Below, piece after piece: positions 1,221 to 62,277 of a DNA stretch of 64,000 bases. A program made the position numbers and the translations under genes. Source of the DNA: Burkholderiales bacterium (lineage in GTDB: Bacteria; Pseudomonadota; Gammaproteobacteria; Burkholderiales; SG8-41); contig JAUXYA010000024.1 in the NCBI GenBank assembly GCA_030684405.1, forward strand, positions 82,657 through 146,656, in the 5' to 3' direction. The notes beneath the pieces were generated by a model that saw nothing but the letters and a program-made list of their open reading frames with translations, was not told where the DNA came from and made no database searches. Every line of letters starts with the position of its first letter. Positions within the stretch are counted from its first letter, which is position 1.

Positions 1221-1243
1221 ATTCAATAAAAACAATTAGTTAA
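1221..1243 (+). repeat. AT-rich 23-nt motif, copy 1 (attcaatAAAAACAAttagttaa)
   Basis: Lies in the convergent intergenic gap between the orphan mlaF-like gene and murA. It shares the AAAAACAA core and flanks with six other copies. Confidence 0.8.
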
Positions 1244-1261
1244 AAAAACTTCCCGCTCCGC

Positions 1262-2515
1262 TCAGTTGATACGGCGGATGCGCGCGCCGAGCTTCGACAA
1301 TTTCTCTTCGATGCGCTCGTAGCCGCGATCAAGGTGATAGATTCGTTCGATGGTCGTCGAGCCGCGCGCAACGAGTCCCGCAATGACCAGGCTGGCTGAC
1401 GCCCGCAGGTCAGTCGCCATCACCGTCGCGCCGTCCAGCGCTGTCACGCCCTGAATCAACGCGGTATTGCCCTCGACCGCAATGTCAGCGCCCAGGCGCT
1501 GCATTTCCTGCACGTGCATGAAACGGTTCTCGAAAATGGTCTCGACGATTCGTGAAGTGCCCTGGGCCACCGTGTTCAGTGCCATGAACTGCGCCTGCAT
1601 GTCAGTGGGGAAAGCCGGATACGGCGCGGTTCGCACATTGACCGCCTTCAGCGCGCCATTGGCCCGCACATGGATCCAGTCGCTGCCGGTCTCGATGCGC
1701 ACGCCGGTTTCACGCAGCTTGTCGAGCACCGCCTCCAGCGTATCGGGCCGCGCGCCGGTGACCTTGATATCGCCGCCGGTCACCGCTGCCGCCACCAGGA
1801 AGGTGCCGGTCTCGATGCGGTCGGGCATCACGCTGTGGCGGGCGCCATGCAGGCGCTCGACGCCCTCGACGGTGATCATGTCCGTGCCGGCGCCGCTGAT
1901 TTTCGCACCCATCGCGGTGAGGCAGGCGGCAAGATCCGGAATTTCGGGCTCGCGCGCCGCGTTCTCGATCACCGTGACGCCATCGGCCAGCGCCGCCGCC
2001 ATCATCAGGTTCTCGGTGCCGGTGACGGTGACGATGTCCATGCAGATGCGCGCACCCTTCAACCGCGGCGCGCGGGCGATCATGTAACCCTCCGCCATCT
2101 CGATGGTCGCGCCCAGCGCCTGCAAACCTTTCAAATGCTGGTCCACCGGACGCAGCCCGATTGCGCAGCCGCCGGGCAGCGAGACCCGCGCCTCGCCCAA
2201 CCGCGCCACCAGCGGCCCCAGCACCAGCACCGAGGCACGCATGGTTTTCACCAGCTCGTAGGGCGCGACCGGATCGGAGATGTGCGCCGCCCGCAGCTCG
2301 ACGCCGCCCTTTTCGTCCAGCGAGGTGGTCACACCCATCTGCATCAGCAGGTTGAGCATCGTCGACACGTCGCGCAAATGCGGCACGTTGTCGACCAGCA
2401 GCGGCTCCTCGGTCAGCAGCGCCGCGGTGAGTATCGGCAGCGCCGCGTTCTTCGCGCCGGAAACGGCAACGCTGCCGGACAGCGGCACGCCGCCTTCGAT
2501 GACTAGTTTGTCCAT
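1262..2515 (-). CDS. murA: UDP-N-acetylglucosamine 1-carboxyvinyltransferase
   Basis: 417 aa. [29 protein letters not shown] and the LPGGCAIG active-site Cys region are typical MurA. Confidence 0.97.
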
Positions 2516-2533
2516 AGAGTCAAAATCTTTTTA

Positions 2534-2643
2534 GCCGCAGAGTTCACAGAGAAGATCAAAAACATACCCAGAGCAGGCACTGCACATCTTGCCGCTGATT
2601 GCCAATGTGCTTTTTTCTCTGTGTCCTCTGTGAACTCTGTGGC
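2534..2643. repeat. REP-like long hairpin element (18-bp arms gccgcagagttcacagag / ctctgtgaactctgtggc, one mismatch)
   Basis: Inverted repeat with arms at 2534-2551 and 2626-2643, in the murA-ibaG intergenic region. Its tail ttttttctct...ctctgtggct recurs near 63105-63126. Confidence 0.7.
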
Positions 2644-59638: not shown

Positions 59639-59795
59639 GAAAAAACCTCCTTTGGATGCTGCAGCTATATGGTTTAGTTATGATGTCCGCTTTGCCGCTC
59701 CGGAAGCACCGGCGGAGCAAACCGCAAACGCTTGCATTCTAGCCGGTGAAGGTGGAAACGCAACGCCCCCCTGACGATCGGTCGGGAATCACCCA

Positions 59796-61007
59796 CTACA
59801 GGAACCGGGCGATGTCGATACCCCAGTTTTCGGGGTTCTCGTGCTGCACGATGCGATCGCCGCCGCCACGACCAAGGGGCTTGGAAAGATCGACATCTTC
59901 GGCCGGAAGGTAATGGTTGTGCTTGACGCTGAAGATCACCCGCACCAGTGGTTTCAGCAGATTGCCCTCGCACTGCCCGATGACGACCGCCAGTCGTCCA
60001 CTTTCCAGGCGAACCAGGGAGCCGGTGGGATAGATGCCAATACAGCGAGTGAAGGCATGTACCAGCTCCGGGTTGAAGTGGAACTTGCTCCACTCGAATA
60101 TCTTGCGCATCGCCTCGGTCGGCTCCATGCCCTTGTGATAACAGCGGTCGGAGGTAATGGCGTCGTAAACGTCAACGATCGCCGCCATTTGGCCCATCTG
60201 CGAGATCTCGCCCGCTTTCAGGCCCAACGGATAACCGCTGCCGTCATGGCGCTCGTGGTGCTGTGCCGCGACCTGCACCGCGATCGCTGAAATGCCGGGC
60301 GTTGCCTCGAGAATGCGCCGACTTTCCACGACATGGCACTTGATCTGGCGGAACTCGTCGTCGGTCAGGCGACCGGGCTTGTTGAGTATTTCGTCAGAAA
60401 CTTTCGTCTTGCCGATGTCGTGCAGCAAGCCGCCGATCCCAGCTTCGTGGATGTCTGAGGGTGGTAGACCCAGCGCTCGCGCAAAAGCGGTCTGCAGTCC
60501 GCAAACACTGACCGAATGCTGGAACGTGTAGTCATCCTTGTTCTTGATCCGGCACAGGCTCAGCAGCGCGCCGCTGTTGCGCAGGATCGACTGGGTTATT
60601 TTCCCCACCACCGGCTCGACACGCTCGCTCTGGATCTGCCGGCCCAGCCGCACATCCTGCATCAGGTCGCGGATCAGCGCATTGGCCTCGCCCTGGATGC
60701 GTTGCGCGCTGGCCACCTCTTCCCGCATCGAGGTCTGGCGCTGACGCGGCGCAGCGGCTTCGGCAAAAGCCACCATTTCCCGGTCGAGTTCGCGCTCAAC
60801 CTCGACTGCGTCCTGACCGGGGCCATCAACCCCGCGCGCCGGATCGATGTAGACCTCGCGGATGCCAGCTTCGCGGATTTTCAGGATCTGCCCCTCGTTC
60901 GAGAGCGCGAACTGCCTGCGCAGGAAGGGATGATCCATCCAGTCGCAGTTCAGATCCTGTATGAACATGCCGACCCGCAGGTCTGACACGCCGATTTTTC
61001 TGAACAT
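59796..61007 (-). CDS. HD-GYP domain phosphodiesterase
   Basis: It has HDIGKTKV and HHERHDGSGYPLGL. Confidence 0.9.
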   Translation of the reverse strand: MFRKIGVSDLRVGMFIQDLNCDWMDHPFLRRQFALSNEGQILKIREAGIREVYIDPARGVDGPGQDAVEVERELDREMVAFAEAAAPRQRQTSMREEVASAQRIQGEANALIRDLMQDVRLGRQIQSERVEPVVGKITQSILRNSGALLSLCRIKNKDDYTFQHSVSVCGLQTAFARALGLPPSDIHEAGIGGLLHDIGKTKVSDEILNKPGRLTDDEFRQIKCHVVESRRILEATPGISAIAVQVAAQHHERHDGSGYPLGLKAGEISQMGQMAAIVDVYDAITSDRCYHKGMEPTEAMRKIFEWSKFHFNPELVHAFTRCIGIYPTGSLVRLESGRLAVVIGQCEGNLLKPLVRVIFSVKHNHYLPAEDVDLSKPLGRGGGDRIVQHENPENWGIDIARFL

Positions 61008-61092
61008 TTGCCGAATAACCCGGACGCATTGCCGGACATTCCGGCACGGTGTTAACGGCGCAAACGGCGAGAATATTGAGCCACGAAGCTCC

Positions 61093-62277
61093 TCACGGCA
61101 GGAACATTGCCAGCAGATCGTTCAGGAAACGGCGCCCGAGCGGAGTCGGCCGGACGCTTAGGTGGTCACGCATCAGCAGGCCGCGCGCCTCGGCCTGGTC
61201 AAGTACGGGCAGCACAGGGGTCAGGTCCAGCCCCGTCCTATCGGCAAACAGGGACAATTCGAAGCCATCGTTCAGCCGCAGGGCATTCATCATGAATTCA
61301 CCTGGCAGCTCCACAGCACTGAGCTCGCGCTGCTCGCTGAGCGCAGAACCGGCGGCAACCTGCGTCAGGTAGGCCTTCGGCTGCCTCGCACAGGAATAAC
61401 GCAATATATTGTTTTTAAATGATATTTTTCCATGCGCTCCAGCGCCGATACCGAGATAGTCGCCGAAGGTCCAGTAATTCAGGTTGTGCCGGGCCGGCAG
61501 GCCCGGACGGGCAAATGCGGAAATTTCATAATGCCCGTAACCGGCATCGGCGAGCCGCGTTTCCACCGCAGCCTGCATCGCTGCTGCCGCATCGTCGTCG
61601 GGCACAGCGGGCGGATAGCGGTGGAAATACGTGTTGGGTTCGATGGTCAGGTGATAGGCACTGACATGCTGGGGCGCCAGTGCAATCACCGCCGCAATGT
61701 CGGCTTCGGCTTCTTCCTGCGTCTGTCCGGGCAGGCCGTACATCAGGTCGAGGTTGACGTTGTCGAAAGTGGCCAGCGCCAATTCCGCGGCGCGGCGCGC
61801 TTCGCCGGCATCGTGGATGCGTCCGAGCGCATGCAGGTGGCGGTCGTTCAAGCTCTGGATACCCAGCGACAGGCGGTTCACGCCGGCGGCACGGAAACCC
61901 CTGAATTTTTCAGCTTCGACGGTGCCCGGATTCGCCTCGAGCGTAATCTCGGCATCCGCCGCCAGCGGCAAACGGGCCCGCACGCCAGACAGCAGCGCAT
62001 CCAGCGCGGATACTGACAGCAGGCTCGGCGTGCCGCCGCCAATGAACACCGTCAGCACCGGACGCCCCCAGACCTGAGGCAGTGTGAACTCCAGATCGGA
62101 GAGCAGCGCGGCCACGTATTCATCCTCGGGCAGCGTGCCGCGGGCTTCATGGGAATTGAAATCGCAGTACGGGCATTTGCGCACGCACCAGGGCACGTGA
62201 ATGTACAGCGACAACGGCGGCAGGACAGAAAACTGCAGCGGTGAGTGCGGAGTGATAAGTGATGAGCCTGAAGGCAC
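61093..62277 (-). CDS. hemW: Radical SAM family haem chaperone HemW (HemN-like)
   Basis: It has LSLYIHVPWCVRKCPYCDFNS. A GTG at 62277 lies just after the rdgB stop. The ORF track start at 62349 would overlap rdgB. Confidence 0.9.
   Translation of the reverse strand: MPSGSSLITPHSPLQFSVLPPLSLYIHVPWCVRKCPYCDFNSHEARGTLPEDEYVAALLSDLEFTLPQVWGRPVLTVFIGGGTPSLLSVSALDALLSGVRARLPLAADAEITLEANPGTVEAEKFRGFRAAGVNRLSLGIQSLNDRHLHALGRIHDAGEARRAAELALATFDNVNLDLMYGLPGQTQEEAEADIAAVIALAPQHVSAYHLTIEPNTYFHRYPPAVPDDDAAAAMQAAVETRLADAGYGHYEISAFARPGLPARHNLNYWTFGDYLGIGAGAHGKISFKNNILRYSCARQPKAYLTQVAAGSALSEQRELSAVELPGEFMMNALRLNDGFELSLFADRTGLDLTPVLPVLDQAEARGLLMRDHLSVRPTPLGRRFLNDLLAMFLP
61401..61423 (-). repeat. AT-rich 23-nt motif, copy 7 (minus strand: atcatttAAAAACAAtatattgc)
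   Basis: Lies inside hemW, where it encodes GKISFKNNILRY using the codons GGA, AAA, ATA, TCA, TTT, AAT, ATA and TTG. Confidence 0.75.

Follow-up and report, generated by a model that had tools for sequence, protein, structure and literature searches.

The closest described counterparts of the element reported here are the DNA uptake signals USS, in Pasteurellaceae, and DUS, in Neisseriaceae. Known uptake-signal cores span 9-12 nt, and the extended USS covers ~30 bp with AT-rich flanks. A published survey (PMC2817400) counts 1,471 copies in H. influenzae, 765 in A. pleuropneumoniae and 1,892 in N. meningitidis, and places 34-65% of USS/DUS inside genes, where they occur at poorly conserved residues, altering peptide frequencies, and where USS frames correlate with preferred codons; in the same survey, genes that have no homologues in related genomes contain no USS.

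Here, we describe an AT-rich sequence of ~38 nt with sharp edges that is found about once per 10 kb in a genome of 63% GC and is present in seven copies in the 64-kb stretch of DNA that was analysed (the window). By analogy with USS/DUS, we suggest, with a probability of roughly 40%, that it is a clade-specific self-DNA signal accumulated via biased horizontal transfer, most likely DNA uptake.

The element and its copies in the window

The element is asymmetric and non-palindromic, with the consensus wAAAAwww-TCAATAAAAACAAATA(C/G)TTA-yrwwnwwT, a near-invariant core of 20 nt and an information content of ~30 bits; its sense strand has an (ARN)4 tract. Conservation ends at the 38-nt edges, where the flanks become background sequence, and the ~23 nt given in an earlier note on this DNA was an underestimate. 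A variant form starts nnTTTAAAAAC, the variant TTTAAAAACAA being found in three weaker window copies (14111 +, 48690 -, 61403 -) and in related genomes. The other four cores, all on the plus strand (1223, 5589, 28620 and 38283), correspond to the 20-mer TCAATAAAAACAANTASTTAT with at most one mismatch, a limit at which 100 dinucleotide-preserving shuffles of the window gave no match. The octamer AAAAACAA is found seven times, whereas 0.73 copies are expected from shuffles, none of which had more than 3, in agreement with the claim of the earlier note that the copies go beyond chance. Six of these octamers fall in elements, the one at 63103 lying in none, and copy 2 carries AAAAACAT instead; the octamer had been described as shared with one copy deviating, which is accurate, as are the coordinates and strands given for all seven copies. 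The window holds 10 islands with at least 16 of 20 bases A/T, seven of which are element copies. Mismatch counts across copies form a continuum, without bursts. The folding energy of the four strong copies (0 to -2 kcal/mol) is not better than that of shuffles and indicates no hairpin, and neither terminal inverted repeats nor target duplications were found at element copies. A search of the window against Rfam 15 at gathering score returned a tRNA-Gly as its sole match, and none for the element.

Copy 1 (1214..1251, +; core 1223-1242, TCAATAAAAACAATTAGTTA; PWM score 43.3 bits) occupies the 42-nt gap between the stop codons of an ABC ATPase gene (278-1219, +) and murA (1262-2515, -). Ten or more related loci retain it at the 3' end of murA; presence or absence depends on the locus, and the copy-less loci have an unrelated spacer of similar length. 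Copy 2 (5580..5617, +; core 5589-5608, TCAATAAAAACATATACTTA; 42.5 bits) lies antisense within the first codons of mlaC (4996-5613, -), whose signal-peptide start reads M-Y-K-Y-M-F-L-L-T-F, and the public gene call starts MlaC at an ATG within the copy. This corrects the earlier note in that copy 2 is not purely intergenic. Its position is kept in mlaC orthologues of 64-88% identity, and the element stands in coding sequence although intergenic DNA is only 50-100 bp away. Outgroups encode MKKYLFTFVLAA at this position by GC-rich codons, and the ingroup has M-x-KYLFLLIF in place of MKKYLFTF (GC-rich codons), in both cases without an indel. Copy 3 (14102..14139, +; core 14111-14130, GATTTAAAAACAAATACTTA, variant 5' half; 33.6 bits) is in frame in the Ala/Pro-rich linker of an ExeA/MshM-like ATPase gene (13082-14554, +) and reads I-N-D-L-K-T-N-T-Y-K. 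It is kept in nine further ingroup orthologues despite an unalignable surrounding linker, and two outgroups have only a weak proto-site at its position (17.5-17.9 bits).

Copy 4 (28611..28648, +; core 28620-28639, TCAATAAAAACAAGTACTTA; 45.1 bits) is intergenic, with an ORF (27799-28542, +) upstream and a pilin-like gene (28706-29443, +) downstream. Copy 5 (38274..38311, +; core 38283-38302, TCAATAAAAACAAATAGTTA; 48.5 bits) provides the last residues (ENINKNK) of a Lon-N-domain gene (37451-38299, +) together with the TAG stop, and the convergent 5-formyl-THF cyclo-ligase gene (38300-39001, -) has its TAA stop in the TTA of the copy; the place of the copy is kept in loci L047 (85% nucleotide identity) and L036 (77%). 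Copy 6 (48681..48718, -; core 48690-48709, ACTTTAAAAACAATAAGTTA, variant 5' half; 31.1 bits) is in frame and sense in a molybdopterin oxidoreductase gene (46509-49550, -), reading F-H-F-K-N-N-K-L-V, and these AT-rich codons are found again in the L236 orthologue, at the corresponding position (32.4 bits). Copy 7 (61394..61431, -; core 61403-61422, TCATTTAAAAACAATATATT) is the weakest, its score of 24.3 bits by itself lying inside the outgroup background range. It is in frame and sense in hemW (61093-62349, -), where it reads K-I-S-F-K-N-N-I-L, and L236 and L238 retain its rare AT-rich codons (AAA ATA TCT TTT AAA AAC AAT .. TTA), which L240, with the variant FEDKILR, has lost.

Overall, ~88% of the copies are intergenic, in either orientation, and 23 of 198 (~12%) are coding. 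All nine antisense coding copies lie in the first 14% of the gene (most within 7%) and read K-Y-L-F-L-L-I-F; those in sense read S-I-K-T-N-S-Y, and most of them fall in linkers or loops. The codons of the in-gene copies are rare in this DNA (TTA, 1.1% of Leu codons; ATA, 5.7% of Ile codons) but kept across species, and these copies lie at positions that tolerate the encoded peptide. In mlaC, the ExeA linker, hemW and the oxidoreductase gene they are present without an indel and are flanked by homologous codons. Since GC-rich proto-sites occupy the same positions in outgroups, the motif evolves in place, by point mutation. A comparison of orthologous positions in related genomes, suggested in the earlier note, gave a positive result for six window copies out of seven (1, 2, 3, 5, 6 and 7, with copy 4 outside the comparison). 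Together with the origin in place, this bears out the proposal that the element is a sequence-specific site on the chromosome whose maintenance operates at the DNA level.

Distribution and orientation across genomes

Over 30 MAG species of uncultured betaproteobacteria carry the element at ~1 per 10 kb, while sister lineages of equal GC lack it: matches of at least 30 bits number 39 in 326 kb of ingroup sequence versus 1 in 153 kb of outgroup sequence of the same GC. The host clade is uncultured. Density ranges from 0.3 to 1.9 per 10 kb in the MAGs with extra, non-seed copies, and six MAGs with little sequence have none extra. The consensus is identical in the more than 30 species, including the C/G mix at core position 16, and no species-private subfamilies or dialects were found among them, over a fairly broad clade. 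The same consensus throughout the clade points to a single conserved reader acting in trans. The copies in the window had been called irregularly spaced, but their spacing is more regular than random placement would give (CV 0.32, P ~0.01, in a post hoc test on this single window). None falls in the low-GC stretch adjoining tRNA-Gly (42.4-46.5 kb), an absence that is a weak point because the stretch is only 4 kb long. Four high-GC viral contigs have a copy close to the contig end, and in two of them it stands beside a tRNA gene and probably belongs to host flank; the element was not seen in the terminase region of these four contigs.

Between co-directional gene pairs the two orientations are equally frequent (26 vs 26), and convergent contexts number 22 vs 13 divergent ones, with some excess in convergent gaps. 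Some copies adjoin separate intrinsic terminators or tRNA 3' ends. Relative to local GC skew, the orientations at 98 loci divide 56 against 42 (p = 0.19), and immediately to the left of the window the orientation changes while the skew does not. In the window, five plus-strand copies do precede two minus-strand ones, but the copy that follows leftwards, outside the window, again lies on the minus strand, and the order does not reflect a polarity switch. A fork-polarity motif (KOPS, Chi, Ter), among the candidates of the earlier note, was rejected on these data.

Explanations for the accumulation of copies

We propose that element-bearing DNA is favoured at some step of horizontal transfer and that copies accumulate and persist for this reason. 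The likeliest such step is the entry of free DNA into competent cells, as for USS and DUS. We infer that such a bias exists and that its reader would be a conserved surface or periplasmic DNA receptor binding the 20-bp core, the AT-rich flanks perhaps aiding bending or melting. Better-matching fragments would be taken up and recombined more often, and match-improving point mutations would therefore spread. This proposed molecular drive would act wherever change is tolerated, that is, in short intergenic gaps, stop-codon regions, signal peptides, linkers and loops. Several hundred sites per genome, each of ~30 bits, should be hard to hold by site-by-site selection, for which a transfer bias, acting on all of them, would have no need. 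We found no candidate receptor. The window does contain a pilus cluster, which had been put forward as a reason to expect an uptake signal, but it does not count as evidence: it belongs to the MSHA type (MshE, secretin, ExeA-like ATPase) and, to judge from its ExeA-like gene, is common to motif-free outgroups.

All the positive features would also suit selection for protein binding sites, and the main rival reading, somewhat less probable than ours, is that the copies are high-affinity sites of a sequence-specific architectural or nucleoid-associated protein, selected one by one about every 10 kb, for example as loop or domain anchors or as nucleation sites for an H-NS/MvaT-type AT-binding protein. 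This would agree with the sharp-edged, asymmetric footprint of ~38 bp, with a position and orientation conserved between species, with an orientation independent of genes and replication, with one consensus in all species and with the even spacing of ~10 kb, equal to the reported size of topological domains in E. coli; furthermore, the 5' half TCAATAAAAA resembles the H-NS high-affinity motif, TCGATAAATT. However, such a role would require strong per-site selection at hundreds of loci, sites are forced into the mlaC coding sequence with intergenic DNA so near, and by our estimate ~14 bits would suffice for ~500 sites in a 4-5 Mb genome, far below the ~30 bits of the element. No candidate protein was found, and we know of no nucleoid protein with so long, strict and non-palindromic a consensus. 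The IHF consensus is WATCAANNNNTTR with an A-tract ~8 bp upstream. By sequence inspection, the element agrees with that consensus only in the WATCAA part and has AAC at the TTR position; roughly every second copy contains TATCAA, and the A-tract stands at a distance of 2 bp. Both a nucleoid protein site and an uptake-type signal had been suggested in the earlier note, and the mode of copy evolution fits the latter better.

The same drive could also operate through another transfer step, with the element as a pac-like signal of a gene transfer agent or transducing phage or as an oriT-like nick site. The drive-type evidence applies equally, and terminase pac sites are typically contiguous, asymmetric and ~20 bp long (22 bp for P22 pac). 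This reading is nevertheless improbable, as gene transfer agents, to our knowledge, package DNA without sequence preference, the viral-contig copies are near contig ends and not in the terminase region, and association with a relaxase or terminase was not seen. More improbable still is a signal at the transcription or RNA level (promoter, terminator, RNase or Hfq site, small RNA). AT-rich islands in GC-rich genomes are often promoters, and the (ARN)4 tract and the terminators or tRNA 3' ends next to some copies could be read in this sense, but the equal co-directional counts, the 22 copies between convergent genes, the in-gene copies in both orientations and the lack of a hairpin or Rfam match oppose it. 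Nothing is conserved outside the 38 nt, thus there is no properly spaced -35/-10 pair and no -24/-12 element. Sigma-70 and sigma-54 promoters were rejected on account of the single contiguous block, the missing G-rich -24/-12 and the equal orientations, and intrinsic terminators on account of the missing hairpin, those beside some copies being separate. We give the least credence to a REP/MITE-like miniature mobile element with a transposase in trans, a reading already largely refuted. The multiple, mostly intergenic copies with some excess in convergent gaps, a size near that of REP units and the variable presence at the murA 3' end would suit it; against it stand the lack of hairpin, terminal inverted repeats and target duplication, the coding copies without indel alongside homologous codons, the unrelated spacers of similar length in place of a clean empty site at murA, the outgroup proto-sites, the single consensus without lineage-specific subfamilies and the continuous divergence. 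The earlier note was therefore right to dismiss a transposon or MITE. Evidence from in-place evolution, orientation and structure excludes transposon, promoter, terminator and fork-polarity site alike.

Comparison with known systems

REP/BIME/RIP, Correia and ERIC sequences share with the element a length of ~35-40 nt, several hundred copies and a mostly intergenic location, often at gene 3' ends and in convergent gaps, and a protein might bind the element in the way that gyrase and IHF bind BIMEs. Unlike these repeats, it has neither palindrome nor hairpin, lacks terminal repeats and target duplications, arises in place within codons and has one consensus in many species. KOPS, Chi, Ter/Tus, matS, Noc/SlmA and parS sites resemble it in being sequence-specific and under DNA-level selection, some of them clade-specific. 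Ter, of ~23 bp, is likewise an asymmetric AT-rich site, and the element, when reverse-complemented, opens with 8 bases (ATAAGTAT) that match TerB; however, the GTTGTAAC core of Ter is absent. The element also lacks the GC-skew orientation bias of KOPS, Chi and Ter, is not palindromic as matS, parS, Noc and SlmA sites are, and has far more copies, over many contigs, than Ter, matS or parS. IHF and H-NS sites are AT-rich, asymmetric and ~35 bp long, and TATCAA corresponds to the WATCAA part of the IHF consensus, but conservation of the element is much tighter than binding by either protein calls for, and neither protein is clade-specific.

Compared with USS/DUS, several differences count against our preferred reading of a self-DNA signal: a core of 20 nt (whole element ~38 nt) vs 9-12 nt, the absence of dialects across a fairly broad clade, a density of ~1 per 10 kb vs 1 per 1-3 kb (3-10 times lower than in the three species of the survey cited above), ~12% of copies in genes vs 34-65%, and rare codons in coding copies vs the preferred codons of USS. 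In addition, the entire element is AT-rich in a 63% GC genome. On the other hand, the element, like USS/DUS, is non-palindromic, restricted to one clade, present in hundreds or more copies and unlike the genome average in composition. It is over-represented genome-wide relative to chance and to motif-free relatives, and occurs in both orientations without a link to gene direction or replication. The absence of copies from the one putative island of the window (4 kb) recalls USS, and the in-gene copies at tolerated or poorly conserved residues, in particular frames, recall USS/DUS. Finally, a core with AT-rich flanks, as in the ~30-bp extended USS, an origin by point mutation and retention at orthologous positions are likenesses to the USS/DUS systems.

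The element in the window and its anatomy

The seven copies of an AT-rich motif claimed in the earlier note were all found in the window sequence (63.4% GC), with correct coordinates and strands for 7 of 7. Four cores, all on the plus strand (starts at 1223, 5589, 28620 and 38283), differ from TCAATAAAAACAANTASTTAT by no more than one base, and no such match occurred in 100 dinucleotide-preserving shuffles of the window. In the three weaker copies, at 14111 (plus strand), 48690 and 61403 (both minus strand), TTTAAAAACAA replaces TCAATAAAAACAA. The window contains AAAAACAA seven times versus 0.73 expected, six of these occurrences lying within elements and the seventh, at 63103, being unrelated, and seven of the 10 AT-rich islands (at least 16 A/T in 20) in the 64 kb are element copies. 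Spacing inside the window is more regular than expected by chance (CV 0.32, P ~0.01), a post hoc value from a single window, and the scarcity of gaps below 1 kb at other loci simply reflects, in large part, gene length. A contig in GCA_030680675.1 that reaches beyond the left edge of the window has a further copy in the hisF–hisI gap, this one on the minus strand; the order of five plus-strand copies followed by two minus-strand copies is thus no polarity switch.

When 185,579 species genomes were scanned with TCAATAAAAACAWNTASTTA, at least 118 blocks matched. Among the matches listed, about 100 blocks belong to more than 30 uncultured betaproteobacterial MAG species (block GC 55–68%), the others being chance matches, mainly in AT-rich genomes or AT-rich stretches. 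In an alignment of 102 copies the element is sharply bounded and about 38 nt long: its left flank (−9 to −1) is rich in A, the core measures 20 nt, and the right flank (+20 to +27) is less strongly AT-rich; outside the element the composition is that of the background. Searching this DNA with relaxed criteria recovered about 70 additional copies of greater divergence, about 1 per 11 kb, and identified nnTTTAAAAACAAATAsTTA as a regular variant, so that the weaker window copies are true members. No secondary structure was predicted in the strong copies (folding energy 0 to −2 kcal/mol, shuffles being at least as good).

The sole Rfam match over the window is tRNA-Gly(CCC) (42324–42397, minus strand). 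Directly after it, a stretch of lower GC content (54–58% vs 63%; 42324–46500 with the tRNA gene included) encodes a YcaO-domain protein that also has an OsmC domain (42718–44919) and an erythromycin-esterase-like protein (45149–46468); its appearance is that of a genomic island integrated at tRNA-Gly, and it holds no element copy. Positions 54473–57889 are 70% GC, very strongly skewed towards A over T (0.32–0.37), and contain an ORF of 1138 aa, whose syntenic counterpart of the same length in the comparison locus L238 has no recorded Pfam match.

Distribution of the element

The element is real, occurs widely across an uncultured clade of betaproteobacteria and is apparently undescribed so far. 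Its sequence occurs in no relevant indexed paper, the sole text match being unrelated. Among 80 metagenomic loci orthologous to mlaC, those with MlaC identity of at least ~64%, together with two more distant ones, mostly carry 0.5–2.4 copies per 10 kb, four of them being element-free, and loci of equal GC with MlaC identity of 36–62% have no copy within 4 mismatches. A 40-nt matrix at a threshold of at least 30 bits gave 39 matches in 326 kb of ingroup sequence (related MAGs with the element) versus 1 in 153 kb of outgroup sequence (sister lineages). Counted by MAG, extra (non-seed) copies amount to 0.3–1.9 per 10 kb where found and are absent from six MAGs, each represented by little sequence; extrapolation of this density implies several hundred copies per genome. 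The consensus is the same in every MAG, including about equal use of C and G at core position 16, which favours one conserved reader acting in trans and argues against copy families descended from each other. In the outgroups no repeated AT-rich motif (dialect) of their own was found, just isolated partial look-alikes. An AT-rich sequence, TAAAATRCTGTTTTTAWT, located immediately upstream of hisG in four outgroup loci (L196, L199, L201 and L218), partially resembles the reverse complement of the element and is probably part of a promoter region.

A link to tRNA genes or prophage ends was rejected, the viral contigs being few, with copies near contig ends and in inconsistent orientation; a tRNA gene stands beside the copy in two of these. 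The viral matches are probably due to chance or to host flanks. A viral family of about 45% GC (L121, L123, L128, L130, L134, L136, L141 and L144) shares a perfect copy of the 20-mer TCAATAAAAACAAATACTTA with the same surrounding sequence (..gattaaca[20-mer]gcttaaaggggg..), and in the prophage contigs L119, L137 and L147 the 20-mer adjoins a partial tRNA 3′ end; each family probably inherited one chance occurrence. Plasmids gave partial matches to the 40-mer consensus at chance level only, and the two inspected were unrelated.

Orthologous positions and gene context

Conservation of the motif at orthologous positions, the check proposed in the earlier note, was observed for sites 1, 2, 3, 5, 6 and 7, numbered along the window. 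At the 3′ end of murA, 10 or more related loci keep site 1; two others with matching neighbour genes have instead an unrelated GC-rich spacer of similar length, which is not a clean empty site. Site 2 falls within the first codons of mlaC, where the ingroup reads ATG-nnT-AAG-TAT-TTG-TTT-TTA-TTG-ATA-TTT (M-x-K-Y-L-F-L-L-I-F) and the outgroup ATG-AAG-AAA-TAT-CTG-TTT-ACG-TTC-GTG-CTG (MKKYLFTFVL), without indel. At 5587–5613 of the window a variant (...ACATAT...) creates an ATG within copy 2, at which the public MlaC call begins (201 aa; 1379–1984 of locus L235); in most element-bearing relatives MlaC starts 3–4 codons upstream of the start in the window genome. Site 3 belongs to an ExeA/MshM-like ATPase gene, in the part encoding an Ala/Pro-rich linker, and 10 ingroup orthologues, the one in the window included, retain ..S-I-K-T-N-x-Y.. 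in an otherwise unalignable linker; two outgroups have the weak look-alike DDSIKSIASD (17.5–17.9 bits). A second AT-rich island of this gene (14347–14380) is not an element copy and encodes ..L-V-E-I-N-S-L-F-V-Y-R.., conserved in both ingroup and outgroup.

Site 5 recurs in two species (nucleotide identity 85% and 77%). Its TTA serves as the stop of the 5-formyl-THF cyclo-ligase gene, which is missing in the related loci L047 and L036; within 38300–39110, ~780 nt of the window correspond to ~90–125 nt in these two loci, and the gene presence/absence difference therefore exactly abuts the element. Sites 6 and 7 are kept in orthologues with HemW protein identity of 78–81% (site 6 in the related locus L236 only), their AT-rich codons unchanged, including ATA and TTA, which account for just 5.7% of Ile and 1.1% of Leu codons in the genes of the window; the HemW variant FEDKILR is written with ordinary codons and has no element. 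Taken together, these comparisons show that a DNA word and not a peptide is maintained, that copies originate through point mutation where the prior sequence was already a near match, and that proteins accommodate them.

Gene context was assessed with gene calls from our own GC3-based method. About 88% of copies are intergenic; between co-directional genes the two orientations are found 26 versus 26 times, and gaps between convergent and divergent genes hold 22 and 13 copies, respectively. The element often fills the whole gap and provides the stop codons, with TAA in the left flank and the core TTA as the TAA of a convergent gene; window copy 5 is one such case. Genes contain 23 of the 198 copies from all loci. 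All nine antisense copies fall in the first 14% of the gene, most within 7%, and give K-Y-L-F-L-L-I-F when read on the reverse strand, in what seem to be signal peptides; the peptide of sense copies is S-I-K-T-N-S-Y, mainly in linkers or loops. The element shows DNA-level pressure remodelling what appear to be signal peptides, as well as linkers and C-termini. The Bug/TctC family (tripartite tricarboxylate transporter receptors) is hugely expanded in the clade (68 of 682 called genes in L001–L118) and has one gene in the window (58661–59638); in the related loci the element has no preference for these genes in position or orientation, and a special relation was discarded.

Candidate functions and comparison with uptake signals

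As the earlier note had maintained, the element is not a transposon or MITE: there is no hairpin, terminal repeat, target duplication or coding indel. The existence of proto-sites and the absence of lineage-specific subfamilies likewise dismiss mobile and REP elements, and folding rules out a terminator or REP hairpin. Neutral orientation, a single conserved block, the lack of structure and the many convergent-gap copies exclude a promoter, terminator or RNA signal; sigma-70, sigma-54 and leaderless promoters, tried in both orientations, failed for want of a second conserved block and on the same convergent-gap copies. The fork-polarity factor proposed earlier, or a Ter-like trap, is contradicted by element orientation, which is unrelated to local GC skew (98 loci, 56 vs 42, p = 0.19). 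None of the IHF, FNR, NarL, LytTR, Fis, ArgR and LysR-type consensuses fits all positions. The NarL consensus, TACYYMT, fails with G at the C position in 40% of copies; that of IHF comprises WATCAA and TTR parts, the first being present but the TTR position reading AAC.

Our tentative reading, to which we give a probability of about 0.4, is that the element is a transfer-biased self signal whose most likely role is in DNA uptake. We favour it because the copies evolve as uptake signals do and because per-site selection holding several hundred sites of roughly 30 bits, a value inflated by how copies were selected, seems implausible; a bias in horizontal transfer would act at every site with no per-site benefit needed. 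Transfer bias of the pac or oriT type is a minor variant of the same idea. Binding sites of a postulated architectural protein, about every 10 kb, would account equally well for the footprint-like size, positional conservation and spacing, and are the main rival, which we consider only somewhat less probable. Slightly more doubtful is that the copies are anchor sites, ~10 kb apart and long kept at fixed gene positions, of a postulated clade-specific DNA-binding protein reading ~20 bp asymmetrically, which would amount to chromosome domain structure being written into the DNA of a bacterial lineage as a fixed sequence code.

For the uptake signal, the earlier note had relied on pilus machinery in the window. 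The cluster concerned (11645–29443) is of the MSHA type and comprises genes for a sigma-54-dependent response regulator, the ExeA/MshM-like ATPase, a secretin, a TPR protein, an MshE ATPase with an MshEN domain, a platform protein and several pilin-like and unannotated proteins; an rpoN-hpf-ptsN-hprK-rapZ cluster follows (33625–37694). Judged from the ExeA-like gene, motif-free outgroups share this pilus cluster, which therefore lends no weight to the uptake reading. No candidate for an uptake receptor emerged, and a literature search on uptake sequences in Burkholderiales gave nothing relevant.

To our knowledge, only two bacterial families have documented sequence-specific DNA uptake signals. 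The element, if an uptake signal, would be a third independent case, from an environmental uncultured betaproteobacterial clade, distinctive as a long AT-rich motif in a GC-rich genome, at a density up to ten times lower; it would gauge the generality of transfer-biased self tagging and offer a new system for molecular drive versus selection. If a chromosomal protein reads the motif, the copies would form an architectural code of unusual explicitness and conservation. In both cases the motif is a practical marker for clade assignment of metagenomic contigs and for flagging foreign DNA in them.

For comparison with the uptake signals of Pasteurellaceae (USS) and Neisseriaceae (DUS) we drew on Findlay and Redfield 2009 (PMC2817400) and on Frye et al. 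2013 (PMC3630211). Unlike USS and DUS, the element is AT-rich throughout, 3–10 times less dense and without dialects, just 12% of its copies are genic, and coding copies use rare codons. We keep it outside the USS/DUS family since its core, at 20 nt, is not short and preferential uptake, the defining property, is a proposal here. Like uptake signals, it is non-palindromic, confined to one clade and present in hundreds of copies in both orientations without replication bias; its copies are born by point mutation and kept at orthologous positions, those in coding sequence stand at tolerated or poorly conserved positions, and the one putative island of the window has none. With its reader postulated, the element is best placed as a variant among genomic words of the uptake-signal type.
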